Source: a virus. Taken from it: a stretch of 64,000 bases of DNA. The notes beneath the pieces are model-generated. The model was not told the DNA's origin and made no database searches. It saw nothing but the letters and a program-made list of their open reading frames with translations. Shown here one piece after another: positions 3,222-52,553 of this stretch. The DNA lies in the IMG/VR virus record IMGVR_UViG_3300029906_000002, positions 76,507 to 140,506 of that record; one strand, written 5' to 3'. The translations under genes were made by a program, and so were the position numbers. How positions within the stretch are numbered: the stretch's first letter is position 1; each line of letters opens with the position of its first letter.

Positions 3222-5498
3222 TCAATAATAATTTTCAGAATAACCTATGTACATGATGAATATGAGCGTATAGTACTGAGGTTCTATGTTTACGGGCTGT
3301 CCACCACCTGTCTCGCCTGTTGTGACACTTGCGCGTGCCACACTCTGTGTAACAGCTTGTGTTCCTTCGCCTCCTTCCGAACCTGTGCCACTTTCCGGTA
3401 TATCCACGGTATGTGAGTGAGCTGGCATCTGATCCACAGTGAGCGTGACTTCATTGTTTTCATTGCCTCCTTCAAGTCCCGCTTTAGTGCTTGCTTTGAT
3501 ATACTTGTCTATTAGATTAGGTGTTCCGTTTCCTCCATCACAGATAGCCCATCCTGTAGGTACAGGCTTTCTACCATCATACATCACAATCATGCCAGGA
3601 AAGATGGTATCGGGCATACGAATAGTCCTCAACTCGCCATCCCATACATACACATCGGTAGGTTGCCCGTCTGTGAATATCCCCGAACCTTCACCAGTCA
3701 AGTCTTGATTCTGTACATCTCCACGGAAATAGCAACGGATGATATTCTCTGGGAGCATATTTCCTTCTAATCTGCCTGAAGCATAGCAATAGGTCATGCC
3801 GTTTATTTCTTGCGCCAACAAGAAACCTTGTAGTTTATTGTAGCTGAATTTACCTTCAACCTTTAAGCTGTTAATTATATCGTAAACCACATCGCATCCA
3901 ACCACGCTACAGTTTACTTCGCAACCATTGATTTCTCCAGCTACTATTTTACTGTTGTTTGAAGCACCGTTATCAGTTCCTATTATTGCGCTCTCTGTAA
4001 ATGTCTTGAAAATACAGTCGCTGAACGTGCCTTTCATCTGCATGGTCATATTGCCGCCAAGCGTGTATTCCCTGTTTGGGAAAGCCATGCGTTGCAGGTT
4101 ATCCGGATTGACTTCTATAACCGTGTTTCGTATCTCTCCCGTACACGAACCATCTCCAGCAACAACCAACTCTTCAACATTTTCTTCCTCGCTGACATCC
4201 ATCTGGTTTCTCTCATTGAAGAACTGGAACAAATACTTCCATTCACCGTCTATGTAGAACCTTAGATGCTTGAAATCAAAGTTTGCACTATTGCCGTATT
4301 CATCAGTAAGCCGCGTGATACGTCCAAATGTTTGTAATGTTTCTCCTTCTGCATCCGTCACGTTGTCTGGAGTAGGATCATACTCAAGTTGCCATTGTGG
4401 ATATTCATAGAAGTAAGCGTATTTACTGAGAGTAGTATGTGAAGTGGCGGTAACGACAAGTTTATAGACATTCTTGTTTAGGAATAGATCACCCTCAAAA
4501 GAATCCTCTTCACGTTCCTCAAGCATATCCCACTCGTTCATGAAGTCAAACCTGTACTTCACTCCAGGTTCAAGCGAGCCTTCTTCCATCTTGGTTAGTA
4601 TTTCGCTATATTCTGTATCTATAAATGAATTCGGATCGTTACGGACCACGATATTGTCCACGTACAACCACGATTCACCACCATCCATCTCCATCAAAAA
4701 GCCATTATCTTCACTTCCTCCATCATTGCGAATAGTGTCTGTAACAATTTCTTTGTCACTACCCATGACAAGATTGCTATCCAGCTTTGTTTCATCATTG
4801 GATATGGTTAATGTATCCTTATCATTGATGCTAATTATGATGTCGGTACTGGAATCAATATGCTTCTCGTTACGTTCCGCATAGATTTCTATGCCGTCTG
4901 TTTCGTTGCCTATGATGAGCTTGTTCCCGCTTTCCGAGAAGTAGCCTTCAAGCAACAAAGAGTAGTTTGCTTGGTCGACAAGCACATGCAATGGATCATT
5001 AATAGGATCGGGTATCTTGAATTCGAGTTTGGTAGCAACGCCTCCGGATATGGTATAAATAGCACTTTCCGAGGAGATAAAGGCAATACCGGATTGTATG
5101 CCGTAAGAGTTCAGTTCATCCACTGTTTCGGCAAGTATGCCGATATTCTTCTGGGCAAACATCTTTTCCTCGCCAGTCTTACCTTCCTGTAACTCAAAGG
5201 CTACGAAATTGCTGCTTGACGCATCCTGCACGATAGGAATGATAGTGTCGCCATCTTTGATGAACACTTGTCCATCTTCCGTGATAAAGATGCCACTACC
5301 AGGAGCAGACGCTATGTCGTCTTCCGAAGTCACTTTCTTGAATAACTTGACGTCAGCATTAATCTTACCATCTTTAATAAGATCAATGTATTTGTTTCCC
5401 CACTTAATCTTAACCTTACCCTTTGTCTTTATCAGAAAGTCAGCACTACTCTTGCCGATACTCTCATAATTTCTTCCGAACAATCCTTCCATTGCCAC
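3222..5498 (-). CDS. Tail protein with C-terminal tail-collar/short-fibre domain
   Basis: 758 aa; C-terminal PGMIVMY..VPTGWAICDG.NGTPNL...QMPAHSH...NIEPQYYTLIFIM is a typical collar/tip motif. Confidence 0.75.
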   Translation of the reverse strand: MAMEGLFGRNYESIGKSSADFLIKTKGKVKIKWGNKYIDLIKDGKINADVKLFKKVTSEDDIASAPGSGIFITEDGQVFIKDGDTIIPIVQDASSSNFVAFELQEGKTGEEKMFAQKNIGILAETVDELNSYGIQSGIAFISSESAIYTISGGVATKLEFKIPDPINDPLHVLVDQANYSLLLEGYFSESGNKLIIGNETDGIEIYAERNEKHIDSSTDIIISINDKDTLTISNDETKLDSNLVMGSDKEIVTDTIRNDGGSEDNGFLMEMDGGESWLYVDNIVVRNDPNSFIDTEYSEILTKMEEGSLEPGVKYRFDFMNEWDMLEEREEDSFEGDLFLNKNVYKLVVTATSHTTLSKYAYFYEYPQWQLEYDPTPDNVTDAEGETLQTFGRITRLTDEYGNSANFDFKHLRFYIDGEWKYLFQFFNERNQMDVSEEENVEELVVAGDGSCTGEIRNTVIEVNPDNLQRMAFPNREYTLGGNMTMQMKGTFSDCIFKTFTESAIIGTDNGASNNSKIVAGEINGCEVNCSVVGCDVVYDIINSLKVEGKFSYNKLQGFLLAQEINGMTYCYASGRLEGNMLPENIIRCYFRGDVQNQDLTGEGSGIFTDGQPTDVYVWDGELRTIRMPDTIFPGMIVMYDGRKPVPTGWAICDGGNGTPNLIDKYIKASTKAGLEGGNENNEVTLTVDQMPAHSHTVDIPESGTGSEGGEGTQAVTQSVARASVTTGETGGGQPVNIEPQYYTLIFIMYIGYSENYY

Positions 5499-5510
5499 AT
5501 TACTTTATGG

Positions 5511-5518
5511 CAAAATTA
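5511..5518 (-). promoter_or_regulatory. Bacteroidetes -7 promoter element
   Basis: TAATTTTG on minus strand just upstream of 5498 start. Confidence 0.5.
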
Positions 5519-5552
5519 AAGGCGGCCAGAAACGTGTTCCAACCGCCTCAAA

Positions 5553-5819
5553 TTACAACATGACCCTTGAAAATCTATCTGAATGCCTGTTGTGTTTCCA
5601 GCCTGCAAAACAAACATCCTTATCGTATTCCCATTCGATGATTCCTGTGTCATAGTTGAAGCTATACGGAATAGTGGATTCAATCTTGAAGTTGAATGCA
5701 GGCTTCTTCACCGCGCTTATCCAAATGCTGAAATCCACCGAAGCAATCATCAACCCTAACTTGTCTATCGTATGCTTGCTATTGAAATCATCGAATATCT
5801 TTTTTAAATACAGTTTCAT
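5553..5819 (-). CDS. Hypothetical protein
   Basis: 88 aa, start overlaps stop of upstream gene. Confidence 0.6.
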   Translation of the reverse strand: MKLYLKKIFDDFNSKHTIDKLGLMIASVDFSIWISAVKKPAFNFKIESTIPYSFNYDTGIIEWEYDKDVCFAGWKHNRHSDRFSRVML

Positions 5820-6049
5820 CAGAATAACTTGCCTACATATAAACCTATCTTATTCAGAAACTCATCCTTCTTATCAATATAGTAGAAGTGTTTCTTTTTG
5901 TTCTCGTCATAAATCAAATAAGGCTTATAGGCATCCCTGACGCGCGTGCCACCCTTACTTAGGGCCTCAAGATGTTTCAGTAGACTAATCATCTCTCGCT
6001 CATCCATTGGTATGCCAAGCTCCTTGAACTCTACAAGACGTTCACTCAT
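5819..6049 (-). CDS. Hypothetical protein
   Basis: 76 aa, overlapping stop/start with neighbours. Confidence 0.65.
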   Translation of the reverse strand: MSERLVEFKELGIPMDEREMISLLKHLEALSKGGTRVRDAYKPYLIYDENKKKHFYYIDKKDEFLNKIGLYVGKLF

Positions 6050-7255: not shown

Positions 7256-7726
7256 TTGACTATGGAATTGAGAATTGACAGACAATATAAAGGGCTTGAC
7301 TACGTGATAAGCAACCTGTATGTGAACGGTGAGAAGTTTGGTTATGTGCTCGAAGATGCAGACAGAGGATTGCGACAAGAGATGCAGGAAGCTACTATAA
7401 GACGTGAAAAGATTTACGGCAAGACTGCTATTCCATACGGGCGATACAAAATCACATTGTCCGTGAAAAGCCCAAGATTCGGTGAACAGAAGTTCTATAA
7501 GGAAGTATGCGATGGTTATCTGCCGAGGCTTGAAAAAGTCCCTGGTTTCGATGGGGTGCTCGCTCACGTTGGTAACTACCCCAAAGACACCGAAGGATGT
7601 CTGCTTGTCGGGCTTGAAAAGAGTGATGGCATGATACTAAAATCAAGAGATGCTTTCAAAAAACTCTATCCATTGCTCAAAAAAGCTGATGAGAACGGTG
7701 AAGAGATCTGGATTCAAGTAGGTTGA
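7256..7726 (+). CDS. DUF5675-like putative endolysin/peptidoglycan peptidase
   Basis: MELRIDRQYK..YVISNLYVNGEKFGYVLED.DRGL...KIYGKTAIPYGRY...PRLEKVPGFDGVLAHVGN..KDTEGCLLVG matches this Bacteroidetes-phage family. Confidence 0.75.
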   Translation: MTMELRIDRQYKGLDYVISNLYVNGEKFGYVLEDADRGLRQEMQEATIRREKIYGKTAIPYGRYKITLSVKSPRFGEQKFYKEVCDGYLPRLEKVPGFDGVLAHVGNYPKDTEGCLLVGLEKSDGMILKSRDAFKKLYPLLKKADENGEEIWIQVG

Positions 7727-7727
7727 T

Positions 7728-7759
7728 TAAAACAGCTTGCCATCTCGACAAGCTGTTTT
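7728..7759 (+). terminator. Intrinsic terminator after putative endolysin
   Basis: AAACAGCTTG...CAAGCTGTTT then T-run. Confidence 0.6.
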
Positions 7760-7957
7760 ACGATAGAAAATGAAAGAAATTCAAAAACCAGAACATTATT
7801 AACCCTAAAAAACAAAGTAAAAAAAGGCGAGGGATTAATCACTTCCCCCGCCTCAAAGTGTGCCTCAGTGTGCGCCTTGTGACTTTGTGTGCTATGACAA
7901 AAATAAAGGCAGGCTTATGGTAGCCCGCCTCAATAATTCATTTATGTAGTTATGGAA

Positions 7958-8347
7958 TCACAAATCCGTTTCTTCTTTCTTAAACAGGTTGATAATACCC
8001 TTTACAATATCATAAATACCGCATGACATGGATCCTGTGGCTACACCTGCGAGTACGCACATACCCCAACTCAAATCAGTAACAGGGCTTGGAATACTTA
8101 CGGCTTTTACGATAACTGCAATGGCAATACCGATTACCAACGAGCAGCCAATCTTAGCCCACTTGTTGTCAGCGATAACGGGTACCAACTTACCGAGTTG
8201 AGTAATAAGCATACCGACAATACCAGCCAATCCTGCGTATGTCGTAAAGTCAAGAACGATGCCTGTAGCATCACTTGCGCCGTCTTGCGCCAGCAGAACC
8301 ATAGGACACGCCAGCAACAACATCAAAAAACAAATCCAATTCTTCAT
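7958..8347 (-). CDS. Holin-like membrane protein
   Basis: 129 aa, signal-like N-terminus plus three hydrophobic segments, charged tail (KKEETDL); converges on the endolysin gene. Confidence 0.6.
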   Translation of the reverse strand: MKNWICFLMLLLACPMVLLAQDGASDATGIVLDFTTYAGLAGIVGMLITQLGKLVPVIADNKWAKIGCSLVIGIAIAVIVKAVSIPSPVTDLSWGMCVLAGVATGSMSCGIYDIVKGIINLFKKEETDL

Positions 8348-8377
8348 AATTATATGTACATTTGGTTTGAGTGTAAG

Positions 8378-8907
8378 TTAGCTGTATGGTAAAAACGATA
8401 GGATCATTATATATCTTTCTTCCCGTGGTTCAAAATAGGTATCTTCTATAAATGAAGGATATAATGTCTGATTATTTATAATTGTGAATGTACTTCCAGA
8501 TGGCATTTCAAGAGAGTAACCAGTACCTTGTGTATATGATTCATTGTTAGTTATGGTATCAAGGTTTAAATCAAGTTGAAAATTAATAACAAACTCTGCA
8601 TCAGCAAAAGGAAATCCATGAGTATAATAGGATATTGAAGTCTGTATAATATTATCATCACGTAATTCAATAATATCATTAGTCTGTACTGATTTTGTTG
8701 CTTCATAAACATACCCTAATTCATCACGCAGAATTTCGGTCATCATTGTACCAACCTGTAAGTCGGTTTCTTTTAAGTTGTACAAAACATTACACCCTTT
8801 GTATATATCAAAAGCAGGCGTAAATATTATATACTTTATTCCGTTTTTAAGGTTAGCGTACTGCCCCCCCCCATTACCATATCGTTGTATATTAATCTTT
8901 TACGCAT
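8378..8907 (-). pseudogene. Poly-G frameshifted gene (OFF state; 176 aa if G10)
   Basis: ATG 8907 MRKRLIYNDMVM then G9 (8864-8872) gives a 23-aa peptide ending at TAA; one extra G reads GGGQYANLKNGIKYIIFTPAFDIYKGCNVLYNLKETDL straight into ORF 8378-8785. Confidence 0.8.
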
Positions 8908-31828: not shown

Positions 31829-32423
31829 CTACGTTGCCTATCACGCATTTGATATGCGTCTGTGCGACAACCTCGAAGCCTTGTCCATAGAACGGAATTG
31901 GAACACTTTCAAATTGGTTATACATCACGATGTCGCCTGACTTTATGCCTCTTGTGTCAGGCGAAATCTCTACTACACAAGCAAATATAGAAGTACGTCT
32001 CATTTCTTCGTATTCACCCGTATCTTGCGATTTGTAGTGTGGATCGAATTCGGGGATGATAAGACCGTCTTCAGTACGTGTCATACGGGAGAAAGGATTG
32101 ACATCAAACGGCTTGACAAGGACGTAGATACCCCAAGGGCGAATGTCGAGATTTCCTATATTCTCCTTAATTTGCTTGCCTACTTCCTCAATATAAGCAG
32201 CCTTTCTCTTCCATTCATCTTCCTGCAAATTGAAGTTCTCTTCCGTTTCCGACATAATGCGCTCTTCGTACTCGTCGAATTTGTCGTCGGATACGGCACG
32301 CACCGTTCCATCAGATACAGTAGACATCATGCCATTATTCACGATACCTTCGCTTGAAATCTGCTGCATCACATCAGCCGCCTTTTGGCTACCCATTGTT
32401 TTCTTTACGTTGTTTTTCCTCAT
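31782..32423 (-). CDS. groES: GroES-like co-chaperonin with acidic N-terminal extension
   Basis: IRPWGIYVLVKP...RTEDGLIIP...VVEISP...IKSGDIVMY...HIKCVI follows the cpn10 pattern. Confidence 0.7.
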   Translation of the reverse strand: MRKNNVKKTMGSQKAADVMQQISSEGIVNNGMMSTVSDGTVRAVSDDKFDEYEERIMSETEENFNLQEDEWKRKAAYIEEVGKQIKENIGNLDIRPWGIYVLVKPFDVNPFSRMTRTEDGLIIPEFDPHYKSQDTGEYEEMRRTSIFACVVEISPDTRGIKSGDIVMYNQFESVPIPFYGQGFEVVAQTHIKCVIGNVDDLSARWLELSKDKQ

Positions 32424-35983: not shown

Positions 35984-36328
35984 ATGATTAAGAGATTTGT
36001 ACCCATAAAAACCCATTCTATATTGGCTGTAAAATGGGATGGAAACATTGATACGCTTGAAGACATCGAAGCAATAACGGGTAAGTGTACCGTCGAGATG
36101 AAACAGGAAAGTTTTAATACTAAAGGATTCAGATTTGCTGATGATGTCAACTATCTGGTTGAATATGATAATAAGAAGATGTTGTATGTAGCTACCAGTT
36201 ATGGATTGTTCTGTTGCAACGTCGGTGACTATGTAGCCAGTATATATAATAAGGATAAAGACGACATGTTGTCGTCAGTAATTCGTGAACATGTATTTGA
36301 GAAAACTTATAAATTATACGAACAATGA
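35984..36328 (+). CDS. Conserved phage hypothetical protein
   Basis: AVKWDGN...VGDYV...FEKTY pattern; stop overlaps groEL start. Confidence 0.7.
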
Positions 36329-46484: not shown

Positions 46485-47192
46485 ATGGAAAATACAAACA
46501 GTTTCCAGCTTCTGAACGCCCGTAGCGGGCAGAGTGTAAACCTTGCACAGTACGCTGAAGCTGTGCAAAGCGGAAGCCGCGAGGCAGTCGAAAACGCGGA
46601 GAGCTTCGGGCTTGTAAGCGTCAACCGTGAGAACGGTGTCGCAAGTGACGAGGCCATCCAAGCAGCGGCCGCGACCATGCAAACCGCTTTGAACGGCTAT
46701 CTGAACAAACCCGTAGCAGGTCAGGGTGCAATACCTGACGGGGCTTTATTGCGCGTGCTTCCTTGCAATGAAGGCGAGGAGGACCGTGCCGTCTTCCTTA
46801 GACCGTTCACGGGCAGACGGCAGAATGGGCAGTCGTACACCGCCATTGCCGTAACTGTCCGCTTTAATCTCTTGGACGAGGCGGGCAACGCGCTTGCATC
46901 TAACGTGGACATCCCGTTAGGCATGCTCACGTGGGACACCTCACGCAGAACAGACGCAAACGGCGCAGTGCATGCCTATGCCGAAGGGCACATCGGTGCC
47001 CAGATTGAGGCGCAAAACCTCACTTTGCAGGAAGCTGTGCGCTTCTTGCAAGGTAGAGTTTTGCGGACAAGTGTGGAAACCTACACGCGTCCGGGTAGAG
47101 TGAACGCAACGCGGCTTGTTAGCCTTGTAGAGGAGGCTCCAGCGGCTCCAGCACCGACTGCAACACGCGGACGCGGCAGACGAAACGCATAA
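46485..47192 (+). CDS. GC-rich early protein, 235 aa, nearly lysine-free
   Basis: ATG 46485 after A-rich leader; strong terminator follows. Confidence 0.8.
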   Translation: MENTNSFQLLNARSGQSVNLAQYAEAVQSGSREAVENAESFGLVSVNRENGVASDEAIQAAAATMQTALNGYLNKPVAGQGAIPDGALLRVLPCNEGEEDRAVFLRPFTGRRQNGQSYTAIAVTVRFNLLDEAGNALASNVDIPLGMLTWDTSRRTDANGAVHAYAEGHIGAQIEAQNLTLQEAVRFLQGRVLRTSVETYTRPGRVNATRLVSLVEEAPAAPAPTATRGRGRRNA

Positions 47193-47207
47193 CGGCGCAC
47201 ACTGATT

Positions 47208-47255
47208 AATAAGGCGGGCAGCTCCTTTCGGGGAGTTGTCCGCCTTATTTTTTTT
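47208..47255 (+). terminator. Strong intrinsic terminator
   Basis: AATAAGGCGGGCAGCTCC-TTTC-GGGAGTTGTCCGCCTTATT then T-run. Confidence 0.9.
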
Positions 47256-47627
47256 GGAATGCCGAGCCGTGACGAGAAAAAATACCGCAACCGCATCGCC
47301 TGCAAACCATCCGAACCACAACAAAGAATACCGCAGTCAAGCGAGGCAAGAACGAAAGCCGAACCACCGCCAACCATCTGAACCAGCCGCCAACCATCTA
47401 AGCGGAAGCAAACCACATACAAACCATCTAAACCATCTAAGTAAATTACATTTACAAAGGGGAGCTACGCAGCCCAGCCACGTTACATACATGGCTACGC
47501 AGCCCAGCCATGTATAAACTCCAATCCTATCCCAGCGGACGGAAAGACAACTCATGTATAAATCTTTCTATGAACTAATCCGTGGCAATATTCCCGCTAA
47601 GTATTGTCACACAACAACTGGTAACAA

Positions 47628-47900
47628 ATGAAAGCAACGAGAAGAACAATCAGACAGACGGTGCTGTTCGCCGTCGTGGGTGCTCTGGGAGTGCCCTTCA
47701 TGGGAGCCAAGGCAGAGTGCATGGACTACATCAAGGAGCATGCGAACGATGACCTGTTCCACGTGGAACCCGCACACGGTGTTGGTATTTCTGAGCGTAA
47801 GAGCTGGGAACAAAGCAAGGTTGTGGTGTACACCAACGCCAAGCTCCCGAAGACCTGGGAAGAGTATAAACAGTTCGTCAAGAAAGGAGGCATGCTATGA
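47628..47900 (+). CDS. Early hypothetical protein
   Basis: 90 aa; ATGA overlap with next gene. Confidence 0.7.
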   Translation: MKATRRTIRQTVLFAVVGALGVPFMGAKAECMDYIKEHANDDLFHVEPAHGVGISERKSWEQSKVVVYTNAKLPKTWEEYKQFVKKGGML

Positions 47901-49750: not shown

Positions 49751-50389
49751 ATGGAGAACAATGTAAAAGTTGCATGGGATCTGAGTGAAAACGAAATCAA
49801 GTTTGCAAAGATCAATGACCAGAGAAACAAGGTTGAAGAGGATCCGGAAGCCGGTGACCGCTCATCGTTGGTGAATACGGAGATGAACACGCTGGTGAAG
49901 GGCGACATCTTCCGCTTTGACGAATCTGTAGGTTCACAGACCTGCTTGCGTCAGAAGGTGCGTAACAGCGATGCGTATGCACGGTTCGTTCATGTCAACT
50001 GCGTGGGCAAGGTTCGTAACTTCTATTTCAGCAGCATCACGCGTGTGGCAGCCGAGGTGGTTCGTCCGACTATGGAAGGCATGGTATGCGTGCCTACTGG
50101 CAAGACGTTTGCTGCGAATAGAAAGAACTTCGACATCGACGGCGAGCAGACTGACTTCGCTAAGGTGGCTAACCAGTTCGTGAGCGACAAGGCTTTGGCT
50201 GAGGCTCTGACTGCCGAGAAGGTGGTATTAAAGGTGCTGGACAAGAAGCAGGTTGTGGTAGCGAGATTTACCGACAACACGCGCACGAGCAACCAGAACC
50301 TGATGATGGTAGACTTCAACGAGCAAGATGAGGAGAAGCGTGCCGCTATCATCGAGGCGTTGATGAAGCGTGCCGCTGAGGCTATCTAA
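49751..50389 (+). CDS. Early protein, 212 aa, possible nucleic-acid-binding beta fold
   Basis: Biased codon use, structured leader upstream, hairpin downstream. Confidence 0.75.
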   Translation: MENNVKVAWDLSENEIKFAKINDQRNKVEEDPEAGDRSSLVNTEMNTLVKGDIFRFDESVGSQTCLRQKVRNSDAYARFVHVNCVGKVRNFYFSSITRVAAEVVRPTMEGMVCVPTGKTFAANRKNFDIDGEQTDFAKVANQFVSDKALAEALTAEKVVLKVLDKKQVVVARFTDNTRTSNQNLMMVDFNEQDEEKRAAIIEALMKRAAEAI

Positions 50390-50417
50390 AAAAAAGGCTT
50401 GAATAAGTCGTAATGTG

Positions 50418-50449
50418 GTAGGCCATTCTATGTGAATAGGGTGGCCTAC
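50418..50449 (+). terminator. Hairpin/terminator with GUGA tetraloop
   Basis: 14-bp stem with two G-U pairs, loop GTGA 50432-50435. Confidence 0.65.
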
Positions 50450-50461
50450 TTGCCATGTTTA

Positions 50462-50493
50462 TTTGCTTAAATGGGAGGATTTCCATATTTTTG
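50462..50493 (+). promoter_or_regulatory. Complete Bacteroidetes promoter TTTG-N20-TAnnTTTG
   Basis: TTTG 50462-50465, TATTTTTG 50486-50493, no convincing ORF downstream. Confidence 0.65.
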
Positions 50494-50499
50494 CCTCCC

Positions 50500-50780
50500 T
50501 ATTTGTGCCGCTGCATATTACGGCATTGAATTTAGCATTTGTGGCGGGGTTTGTGCGTTTCCCTGTTCTTGCACGTTTCCTGCCATTAGTTTAACATTTT
50601 ATTTGTGGCGTCCCCTGCGGATGACTATTATTCCCATAGTTGCGGGGTTGCCATTTGAGCGCGTCTTGTTGTGACAGGACTGAGGAGTTTAGCCCTGTCA
50701 TTTAGGTTGATACACTGTTTGTGCTTTCCAAGGCGCGTGAAGGGAAGGGGTTTTATTGATTTTGCTCCCCTTCCCTTTTT
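50500..50780 (+). ncRNA. Candidate structured ncRNA 1 (~280 nt)
   Basis: Promoter upstream; stems 50541-50586, 50606-50653, 50659-50667/50730-50738 enclosing 50673-50699; terminator 50740-50780. Confidence 0.6.
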
Positions 50781-50844
50781 AAAGAGATACAGGTTTGTCC
50801 GTTGTCCTGCGAACAATGGGCTTTGTTTTGTAATTTTGGTTGTT

Positions 50845-51284
50845 GGCCGTTCTGGCTTGGGAGAAGTCGGGACGGTTTTGAATTGGATTGTAACCGGCCT
50901 GTCTGAGGACGGGCTGTCAAGATATACAAGTTCTCTGTGTGGCGATGTGAATCGTTATACGGGGAATCGGCGGCGGAATTTCCATGATTTTAAATTGTGT
51001 TGGACAGATTCTTTTTGTAACTCGTATAATTCTAGCTTGTTCCGCCGCTTTTTAGGATATTGGTCCTGGTTGACGCCAGGGCCATGCCTGCTACCGGGCA
51101 GCTGTGAAGCCATACCGGTTGCGGCTTTGTTTACTTATTCAAGCTAATTGTTTTGCGGCATTTTGATTTGTGTTCACTTGAAATAGGTGGATTTGTTGCG
51201 ATAATTTCTATATTGTGCCGCTTGGTTTTTTAATGTCTATCTAATAGTTTTTCCTTTCTTACCTGTGAAGGTAGGGAAGGTTTT
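50845..51284 (+). ncRNA. Candidate structured ncRNA 2 (~440 nt)
   Basis: TAATTTTG at 50831-50838; many G-U-rich hairpins, three U-GUGA-A loops, long-range helix 50970-50979/51039-51048; terminal hairpin 51253-51280 then T4. Confidence 0.62.
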
Positions 51285-51308
51285 ATTGTGAACTTGGGTG
51301 TGATTCTA

Positions 51309-51316
51309 TATATTTG
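51309..51316 (+). promoter_or_regulatory. Bacteroidetes -7 promoter element
   Basis: TATATTTG right after the ncRNA terminator. Confidence 0.45.
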
Positions 51317-51508
51317 GCACGACAAGACTATAACCAGTTGTTGAGGAAGAGTTTCATCGTGTATGGAAGAGAAAGTGTGGGAACTTTATATCTTCATAAT
51401 AATGATGAAATGATGTTTTGTTGCGGGACATGGTGCGTGAGCATAGTGTCCCTTTCTTTTTGAACGAACTTGGCTTTGATTGGCCGATTAAAATAAAAGG
51501 AGGAAACA

Positions 51509-51718
51509 TTGATGATGAGAAGTGTGAAACTGATGCGGCCTGCTTTCATGAAATGCGGGTTATGCGTATATTCGCTCGATGGTTCGTTCGTAGTGGATGG
51601 ACTGCGGGGGAGGAGTAGTGCGTTTGTTGGCAAGTCCGGAGCCTGCTATGTGCAGTACGTGAAGCAGGGGAAGAATGTGGCCATTGAAAGTATTGTATGG
51701 ATAGGAAAGGAGGCTTAG
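51509..51718 (+). CDS. Small hypothetical protein
   Basis: 69 aa, GGAGG upstream, stop abuts next start. Confidence 0.45.
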   Translation: MMMRSVKLMRPAFMKCGLCVYSLDGSFVVDGLRGRSSAFVGKSGACYVQYVKQGKNVAIESIVWIGKEA

Positions 51719-51719
51719 T

Positions 51720-52553
51720 ATGACTGACAGAGGAGGAAAGAAACTATACGATAGGGACAGGCGGGAAAGGTATAGGGTGAACGGGCTGAACCTGGTTGCT
51801 GATGTAAACAAGAACCTTGAGGGGTTGTTGGGTATTGACGGCAAAGAAAAGGAGGCTTGGCTACTAAAAAAGATGGCTGTAAACCCTATGGAATGCTTGG
51901 TTGTGACTAAATATCCTACGCCTGTGGCCTATTTTGTGCCCTGGATGTTCGGCAAAGAGTATTCGAGTTCCTTGTTCCTACGTAACGAACGTAACGATTT
52001 TTCGTTGAGTTTGAGGGGTAAGGACGTATGCAAGCTCTTTCACGCGGGAAATATCAAGGTTGAGGACCGTCATATCTGGGATGGATTGTCTTGGAGATGG
52101 ACGACAATGGCCTACTGCGCATGGCAGGACTGGGTTCCTGTGCTTTTTGGAGAGCTTCCTTGGCTGGTGGTGGACTTGATTACTTCGAGCCGATTACTGA
52201 TAGGGGGTATAGCTTTTGAGGGCGTATATGGCTGGAAATACCCCGTAAAACGCAGGAAAACCGGAGCACCTGTCGCGGATATTTTCGGTCAAGTAGGAGC
52301 AAATGGCTTGTCCGATTTGAGCGTGAGTACTATCCCTTGCTATCCCGTTGAACCCGTGTTGGAGTGGCTTTGCATGGCTTACGGATACAAATGGTTGCCT
52401 TCGTATGGCAAAGGGTTGTATGGGGTGGATTTGTACGTGGAGAGTGGCAAGGTAGCGAGCTTCGGGGGTACGGTGAAGAGAGATTGCTATTTAGATGCAA
52501 TCAACTGGTTGTTAGACCGTTTGGGTGTGCAGGAATTGGTTGAGGGGATGTAG
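51720..52553 (+). CDS. Hypothetical protein (Trp-rich)
   Basis: 277 aa. Confidence 0.7.
   Translation: MTDRGGKKLYDRDRRERYRVNGLNLVADVNKNLEGLLGIDGKEKEAWLLKKMAVNPMECLVVTKYPTPVAYFVPWMFGKEYSSSLFLRNERNDFSLSLRGKDVCKLFHAGNIKVEDRHIWDGLSWRWTTMAYCAWQDWVPVLFGELPWLVVDLITSSRLLIGGIAFEGVYGWKYPVKRRKTGAPVADIFGQVGANGLSDLSVSTIPCYPVEPVLEWLCMAYGYKWLPSYGKGLYGVDLYVESGKVASFGGTVKRDCYLDAINWLLDRLGVQELVEGM

Follow-up and report, generated by a model that had tools for sequence, protein, structure and literature searches.

A conserved plus-strand hairpin module, probably a small phage RNA, in a hairpin-rich gene-free gap of a phage related to crAss-like phages

What fills more than a thousand nucleotides between two phage genes when no protein is encoded there? 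The question is raised by a 64,000-nt stretch of viral DNA (hereafter the window; bases 76507-140506 of the 168.6-kb IMG/VR record IMGVR_UViG_3300029906_000002, which is estimated to be 93% complete) whose terminase, portal and major head proteins match phage families. The closest database relatives of the terminase are crAss-like phages (from Bacteroides, Flavobacterium and uncultured gut samples; 28-45% identity), and these relatives point, by sequence, to a host of the Bacteroidota type. In animal guts, crAss-like phages rank with the most abundant viruses. On the plus strand of the window, the gene for a 212-aa protein (49751-50389) ends with its stop codon at 50389 and is followed by a gene-free gap (50390-51508), beyond which lie a small ORF of 55-69 aa (51509-51718) and, directly after it, a gene for a 277-aa protein (51720-52553). 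The module considered here (50462-50780) sits at the start of the gap and takes up roughly the first fifth of its 1.1 kb. A first-pass annotation made from the sequence alone had proposed that this module is a standalone non-coding RNA with its own promoter, a multibranch fold and a terminator. We find that it is a conserved, structured non-coding element of the plus strand and represents a new family, and that it is probably a small phage RNA that forms part of a longer hairpin-rich gap.

Relatives of the locus could be reached only through the flanking proteins, and they fall into four groups. Clade A comprises the window itself, L003/L004, L009 and L010, in which the flanking proteins are near-identical and the gap measures about 1120 nt. 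Clade B (L002, L005-L007 and the partial L060; flanking-protein identity to the window 76-85%) has a gap of about 1050 nt, clade C (L008 and L011-L013; 38-58%) one of about 370 nt, and clade D (L014; 28%) one of about 440 nt, while L062, which is more distant still, has a gap of 250 nt. The order of a 212-aa-like gene, a structured gap, the small ORF and a 277-aa-like gene is common to clades A-D and L062, and in every clade the gap folds on the plus strand with a z-score of -3.8 to -5.3 and 14-26 G-U pairs. The small ORF, for which no family match was found, is conserved in clades A-C and has counterparts in clade D and L062, and the hairpin gap runs up to or into its start.

The module itself is confined to the nearer of these relatives. 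Distant relatives have a far shorter gap that lacks the hairpins h1-h4 described below, and nhmmer found no match to the module in clades C and D, the one exception being an 11-mer of hairpin h3 (GTCCCCTGCGG) that also occurs in a hairpin of L008 (clade C). Nothing that matched the gap was found by blastn among 50,697 phage records, and no further relatives were found in IMG/VR by protein-seeded and DNA-pattern scans or in JGI metagenomes by pattern scans; 45 metagenome matches to a double-hairpin pattern were discarded as chance, having nothing else in common with the gap. When a second copy of the module was sought in the 168.6-kb genome with blastn-short and nhmmer, only the locus itself was returned, and on that ground a diversity-generating (DGR) template repeat was rejected.

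The module opens with a promoter-like sequence. P1 (50462-50493, plus strand) is made up of a -33 TTTG (50462-50465), a 20-nt spacer and the -7 box TATTTTTG (50486-50493), and is a full match to TTTG-N20-TAnnTTTG, exactly where the first-pass annotation had placed a textbook promoter. A -33 TTTG and a -7 TAnnTTTG about 19-21 nt apart are what we take to be the Bacteroidota -33/-7 (sigma-A type) consensus, as in Bacteroides promoters, and transcription from P1 is predicted to start at about 50498-50502. In all, 13 full-consensus matches occur on the two strands of the 168.6-kb record, as against 4.25 in shuffles, and at the shuffle rate a full match is expected on a given strand in a given 100-nt span with a chance of about 1/800. 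Of the window's seven other matches, five precede an ORF by 17-110 nt and are correctly oriented (the ORFs start at 35984, 44750, 52742 and 57173 on the plus strand and at 32423 on the minus strand); because these matches stand just 5′ of ORFs, the phage appears to use such promoters. P1 is the sole full match in the 1.3-kb gap region, and its -7 box is present in the remaining clade A genomes as TACTTTTG.

The sequence that follows P1 is strongly structured. The region 50495-50785 folds on the plus strand with -100.1 kcal/mol and a z-score of -4.35, none of 200 shuffles being equally good (a second run gave z -4.71), and when 42 other 290-nt windows of the genome were folded (mean z -0.84, sd 1.36) just one of them was lower, which places the module second lowest among 43. 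The minus strand, with z -5.27 against its own shuffles, also folds well because most pairs are Watson-Crick, but it is 13-15 kcal/mol weaker than the plus strand. Since both strands beat their shuffles, z alone cannot choose between them; the choice is made by the G-U pairs, which number 16 of 81 on the plus strand and 3 of 67 on the minus strand, and by the pattern of substitutions. The plus-strand G-U pairing remarked on in the first-pass annotation is thus borne out by the count, but its description of a multibranch RNA lying almost all in stems is not: 162 of 288 nt (56%) are paired, and in the minimum free energy structure five hairpins follow one another in a line instead of forming a compact fold, with an inner branch in h4 only.

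It could be asked whether these hairpins merely overlie a coding sequence. Two frames are available, one of 67 aa that starts within the promoter and one of 158 aa that has no match in Pfam. In relatives that are otherwise about 96% identical, both are broken or re-framed by indels of 1-2 nt, and in clade B both are absent, with unrelated frames in their place. A coding reading was rejected on account of the frames lost through indels and the missing Pfam match of the longer one, in agreement with the initial view that the module holds no credible ORF. The module is non-coding and structured on the plus strand.

The row of hairpins begins with h1 (50505-50526), a stem of 6 bp (GUGCCG/CGGCAU) with a 10-nt loop. 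It is followed by h2 (50541-50586), with a 9-bp outer stem GUGGCGGGG/UCCUGCCAU and an inner stem of 5-6 bp, and by h3 (50605-50654), in which the stems GUGGCG/UGCCAU, CCCUGC/GCGGGG and GACUAU/AUAGUU are stacked; UUU stands before each of the three. The fourth, h4 (50659-50738), has a 10-bp long-range stem GCGCGUCUUG/CAAGGCGCGU, an inner hairpin (GUGACAGG.../...CCUGUCA) and an unpaired stretch of about 25 nt. No U-runs follow h1-h4. Every stem that had been named beforehand is present at its position: GTGGCGGGG/TCCTGCCAT is h2, CCCTGC/GCGGGG is the inner stem of h3, and GCGCGTCTT/AAGGCGCGT is the outer stem of h4, around GACAGG/CCTGTC. Upstream of P1 and just 3′ of the 212-aa gene, an inverted-repeat search located a further plus-strand hairpin, H0 (50418-50449), which has 14 bp and a GUGA tetraloop and is likely a terminator or 3′ stabiliser of that gene, outside the RNA proper. 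In L003 five pairs of H0 differ, all of them paired on the plus strand and two altered on both sides, and clade B has a different hairpin at this position.

Hairpins h1, h2 and h3 have a common helix base, which starts with UUUGUG(G/C)CG and ends with (C/U)G(G/C)CAUU. As DNA, TTTGTG[GC]CG occurs four times in 168.6 kb, and three of these copies lie in the module, within 100 bp and at spacings of 36 and 64 nt; clade B carries identical helix bases on its three hairpins. The copies also covary with one another, h1 having C-G where h2 and h3 have G-C, and this swap indicates that the motif is a helix and not a mere DNA word. Three direct 9-mers so close together and near-unique to the module in the genome, in a region of which both strands fold better than shuffles, might nonetheless be regarded as an element of the DNA itself, whether as iteron-like protein sites with the sequence TTTGTG(G/C)CG or as cruciform hairpins of an origin or operator. 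We consider this very improbable, given that about 20% of the pairs are G-U and would become A-C mismatches on the other strand, that substitutions keep pairing on the plus strand only, and that the base which varies in the 9-mer does so together with its 3′ partner; in addition, the cumulative GC-skew minimum and strand switch, the expected site of an origin, lie near 43-45 kb.

The row ends with T1 (50739-50780, plus strand), which has a 12-bp stem, a 16-nt loop and T5 at 50776-50780, with a folding energy of -20.4 kcal/mol. Its perfect inverted repeat of 11 nt (50740-50750 and 50767-50777), followed by the T5, corresponds to the 11-bp hairpin and U-run that had been read as a terminator at the outset. 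The U5 fits the intrinsic-terminator pattern, in which a loop of this size is unusual; a simple terminator scan (G+C-rich stem, 3-8-nt loop, U-run) missed T1 because its loop exceeds 8 nt. In clade B, T1 takes the form GGGAGGCGG/CCGUCUCCC followed by U5, and relative to the window two pairs are altered on both sides, one is altered on one side and none is broken. Sixteen nucleotides after T1, and just outside 50462-50780, comes H6 (50797-50830, plus strand; 9 bp, 7-nt loop CCUGCGA, then UUUGUUUUG), which the simple scan did list as terminator-like and which is possibly a back-up terminator or the first element of the remaining array. Clades A and B differ on both sides of three of its pairs, and where L003 and L009 have single changes the pairing is kept. 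T1 and H6 resemble known intrinsic and tandem terminators in their G+C-rich hairpins, U-runs, tandem placement and compensated changes. They differ from plain terminators in the size of the T1 loop and in a loop sequence of H6 that is conserved beyond the needs of termination.

The H6 loop CCUGCGA (as GUCCUGCGA) is kept from clade A to clade C, in the gaps of L011 and L008, while the stem changes, and such a conserved loop over a changing stem suggests, as far as these alignments go, that the loop may be recognised in a sequence-specific manner.

A promoter, about 285 nt of hairpins without an ORF, and tandem hairpin/U-run sites together amount to the layout of a small non-coding transcription unit. 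Such units are familiar from phages as promoter-RNA-terminator "morons", among them lambda OOP, P22 sar and the EHEC prophage anti-sRNAs AgvB and AsxR, which are mostly 60-120 nt long and base-pair via a defined seed. Like them, the module is a short non-coding unit placed between protein genes, with a host-type promoter, an intrinsic terminator and predicted expression by the host polymerase; unlike them, it is about 285 nt long and mostly helical and has three hairpins with one helix base. The Rfam models of moron sRNAs gave no match to the module.

That these hairpins are retained as RNA structure is also indicated by the way in which they vary. In the clade A alignment, 24 of 299 columns are variable, and all seven transitions in well-supported stems (G-U to A-U or C-G to U-G) keep the plus-strand pair, where on the minus strand the same changes would give A-C mismatches. 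Pair-breakers in clade A amount to two transversions and one change in a doubtful 3-bp hairpin. Pair 9 of h2, for example, changes from G-U to A-U within clade A; four clade A variants of h3 still pair via G-U wobble, with one U-U mismatch in L010; and three clade A variants in the inner hairpin of h4 are all pair-keeping on the plus strand only. In clade B, the order h1-h2-h3-h4-T1 is the same and is again followed by H6, with two extra hairpins, a long one separating h1 from h2 and another upstream of h1. There the h1 motif is GUGCCUGU/GCAGGCAU and h2 is GUGGCCGG/CCGGCCAU, pair 6 being U-A in place of G-C in the former and C-G in place of G-U in the latter; the position of h4 is taken by a 9-10-bp long-range stem of other sequence, directly 5′ of T1. 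The region nevertheless folds with z -4.7 to -5.3 in clade B, despite strong sequence divergence.

Across 38 anchor-aligned pairs compared between clades A and B, 10 are changed (seven on both sides, three on one side) and none is broken; for the RNA proper (h1, h2, h3 and T1) the figures are 29 pairs compared and six changed, four on both sides and two on one. L060 shows more pair-preserving changes in h2 and h3. It is important to stress that these counts were made on arms anchored by the conserved helix bases and are thus partly circular. Pairs were counted in this way because an unguided MAFFT alignment of clades A and B mis-registers T1 and produces many "broken" pairs through misalignment; the covariation term that RNAalifold assigns to that alignment is unfavourable (+4.38), so that the clean count depends on the anchoring. 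A covariance model built from clade A h2-h3 gave clade B 14-20 bits (E 0.008-0.16), where a sequence-only model reached at most 8 bits, but it was rejected as a family model because it gave 24 bits to an unrelated two-hairpin site in L062 and so scored that site above clade B. Three or four independent lineages are too few for a formal covariation test. Judged by the aligned arms, however, the hairpins are kept in the diverged clade through pair-preserving changes.

The region might also have no function of its own and be hairpin-rich filler left by terminator duplication and drift, next to which P1 would be a chance match. Such an origin would sit well with a module that is limited to two narrow clades, has no nhmmer match in clade C, in clade D or at any second site of the genome, and lies in a gap whose length varies widely among relatives. 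It would fit poorly with 10 pairs changed between clades and none broken, with the low chance of a full promoter match (the figure of about 1/800 given above), and with a fold z-score in clade B that is similar despite sequence divergence. Taken together, these considerations lead us to give it very little credence, the least of any reading discussed here.

A more substantial challenge is posed by the rest of the gap, which holds further hairpins of the same G/U-rich style. Like the module, the array at 50831-51284 lies on the same strand, consists of G/U-rich hairpins, is found in the same relatives and shows compensating changes, and T1 and H6 join the two. The hairpins at 50505-50738 differ from that array: the GUGA tetraloops typical of it are missing from them, a consensus promoter of their own precedes them, and clades C and D retain GUGA hairpins but have none of these. 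It could be, then, that the module is no separate gene and that 50390-51508 is a single structured leader or spacer of which it is a cis-acting section. The hairpins would serve as tandem terminators or attenuators, processing sites, or 3′/5′ stabilisers that insulate the upstream early genes from the operon of the small ORF and the 277-aa gene, with P1 as a distal promoter of that operon. One argument for this comes from clade B: its P1 -7 box is absent (as it is in L008) and its hairpins are nonetheless kept, so the hairpins can function without P1. Moreover, at least four plus-strand hairpin-plus-U-run sites occur in the gap (T1, H6, 51253-51280 and 51425-51462), synteny is kept across clades A-D and L062 while the gap ranges from about 250 to 1120 nt, the hammerhead-like cores that L014 and L062 have in the corresponding gap would act in cis to process the transcript, and conservation between clades A and B is highest at the T1-to-H6 junction, not in the RNA body.

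Several features resist this explanation. A full promoter followed by hairpins and then by a strong hairpin with U5 is what one would expect of a short transcript; a one-mismatch promoter, ATTG-N20-TATATTTG, at 51285-51316 is much nearer the downstream operon, so that P1 is not needed for it; and terminators alone leave unexplained both the thrice-repeated helix base and a conserved block (50693-50712) described below. Among known systems, HK022 put and Bacillus EAR are cis-acting processive antitermination RNAs. The module is like these in placing stem-loops just after a promoter and ahead of several terminators and an operon, and is unlike them in that no sequence or model similarity was found, the first terminator is immediate, and the operon has a closer promoter candidate. 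Overall, we regard the leader as the main rival, a genuine but doubtful possibility, and we put the chance of our preferred reading, that clade A makes a discrete protein-binding RNA of about 285 nt, at somewhat below even. The two readings are not mutually exclusive. As for the description "standalone", it depends on a promoter that is confined to clade A and missing in clade B, and the module, as one fifth of a 1.1-kb gap, is no isolated unit, so the term is not supported here.

The GUGA-loop hairpin with a U-run at 51425-51470 (plus strand) precedes the ribosome-binding site of the small ORF by about 35 nt. It is kept in clade B with compensating changes, and may be an attenuator for the operon.

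If the module does give rise to an RNA of its own, the next question is whether that RNA would act by base pairing. The best candidate for a seed is the block at 50693-50712 (plus strand; CCCTGTCATT.TA.G.TGATA), in alignments the best-conserved sequence within the RNA, which is kept in clades A, B and L060 even though its pairing partner is deleted in clade B, and part of which lies in the internal loop of h4. These properties would suit a trans-acting antisense sRNA directed at a host or phage mRNA. On the other hand, in clade A a stem takes up half of the block, no exact complement of 8 nt or more was found at a plausible start site in the phage, and a comparison with 501 phage initiation regions produced no outstanding duplex, the search covering the phage genome only. 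We therefore hold an antisense role to be unlikely. The threefold helix base and the lack of a long conserved single-stranded seed argue for protein binding over antisense action.

Comparison with catalogued RNA families brought no closer relative to light. Rfam 15 gave no match at the gathering threshold anywhere in the window, and in E-value mode the region 50380-51720 gave four weak matches (E 0.56-3), none of them inside 50462-50780; the module can thus still be called an uncharacterised RNA, as it was at first. Large structured RNAs carried by phages and prophages, namely GOLLD, ROOL and HEARO, resemble the module in being non-coding, highly structured and phage-borne, and differ from it in that the module consists of local hairpins with little long-range architecture and has a very narrow taxonomic spread. 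No match to the module came from their Rfam models, whether at the gathering score or with E allowed up to 5. The suggestion that the RNA might mimic an antitoxin found no support in the repeats or the neighbouring genes: ToxI-like tandem repeats of about 30-45 nt were not detected, Tandem Repeats Finder reporting only a 14-nt repeat in two copies (50482-50509), and the three shared motifs of the module are 9 nt long and sit in units of unequal length. The neighbouring proteins had no match in PADLOC or Pfam, and no neighbour is toxin-like. A literature search found no characterised non-coding RNA of a crAss-like phage.

We infer that the module RNA is transcribed, has discrete ends and binds protein, and the transcript boundaries predicted here are plausible. 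In clade A phages, host RNA polymerase would start at P1, and the transcript of about 285 nt would fold on the plus strand into h1-h4. Most transcripts would end at T1, and H6, 16 nt further on, would probably act as a back-up. The RNA would then act by multivalent protein binding, in the manner of a sponge or scaffold, and not by antisense regulation. Its partner could be a host RNA-binding protein or RNase; alternatively, it could be the phage 277-aa protein, whose C-terminus has a predicted fold like that of a double-stranded RNA-binding domain (dsRBD).

The case for the 277-aa protein is a weak lead. The protein (51720-52553) has no match in Pfam, PHROG or PADLOC. Its AlphaFold model is alpha/beta, with a pLDDT of 75.8, and ends in an alpha-beta-beta-beta-alpha domain (residues 208-272) whose best structural matches are nearly all dsRNA-binding domains (Z 4.3-6.6), including those of DCL4 (Z 6.6), TARBP2 (5.8), Staufen, ADAR and RNase III. 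Foldseek E-values for the model are all above 0.01 (against PDB, above 0.1), and the usual RNA-contact motif KKxAK lacks conservation, so we describe the C-terminus as possibly dsRBD-like in fold and go no further. An invariant TDLxTSSRL motif lies in the middle domain. Identity with RNase III, raised by a low-TM Atlas lead, was rejected, since the NERND stretch shows no conservation and a signature of the ERLEFLGD type is missing.

The fullest version of the protein-binding reading is that of a multivalent hairpin RNA which is expressed early, perhaps together with the rest of the array, and whose three helix bases dock one protein. That protein might be a host factor that recognises hairpins or dsRNA and is titrated by the RNA, which would act as a decoy against a defence system or RNase, or it might be the phage 277-aa protein, with which the RNA would form a ribonucleoprotein; we know of no ribonucleoprotein of this kind in crAss-like phages. 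We offer this scenario as a speculative one that is unlikely to be right, and the "decoy" or "scaffold" role already suggested in the first-pass annotation remains a guess, with the thrice-repeated helix base as its sole support.

The module is a concrete target for experiment: its ends are predicted exactly, its promoter is open to testing in Bacteroides, and its repeated hairpin motif could serve as bait. Binding of a host factor, if true, would make it a tool of takeover or counter-defence that operates at the level of RNA, while an array that serves only termination and processing would still show how these phages separate early transcription units. The gap turns over fast among relatives, with hairpin modules in some and hammerhead-like cores in others, and could be a natural case of structured-RNA turnover.

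The gap of the window contains no hammerhead ribozyme core (CUGAUGA ... GAAA with three stems). In the equivalent gap of L014, a complete plus-strand hammerhead core is found at 1406-1489 (HH9, 30.2 bits, E 1.2e-5), and in that of L062 another is found at 2068-2173, also on the plus strand (RAGATH-1-hammerhead, 26.2 bits, E 0.018). Both have the arrangement CUGAUGAG ... CGAAAC ... GUC with three stems, and both score below Rfam thresholds. L062 further encodes a Tad2-like protein (PF11195, anti-Thoeris family) and a sigma-70 family protein (5430-5954 and 7608-8462), a few kb downstream of 277-aa-like paralogues in an early-gene block, and the sequence of this block hints at a takeover or counter-defence region.

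Elsewhere in the window, the lowest fold z-score among the sampled 290-nt windows (-5.8) belongs to 47001-47290. Nearby, the plus-strand region 47193-47680 contains a terminator hairpin (19 bp, with T8) and, after it, A/C-rich sequence in which AACCATCT(A/G)A units recur, a style unlike that of the G/U-rich hairpin gap.
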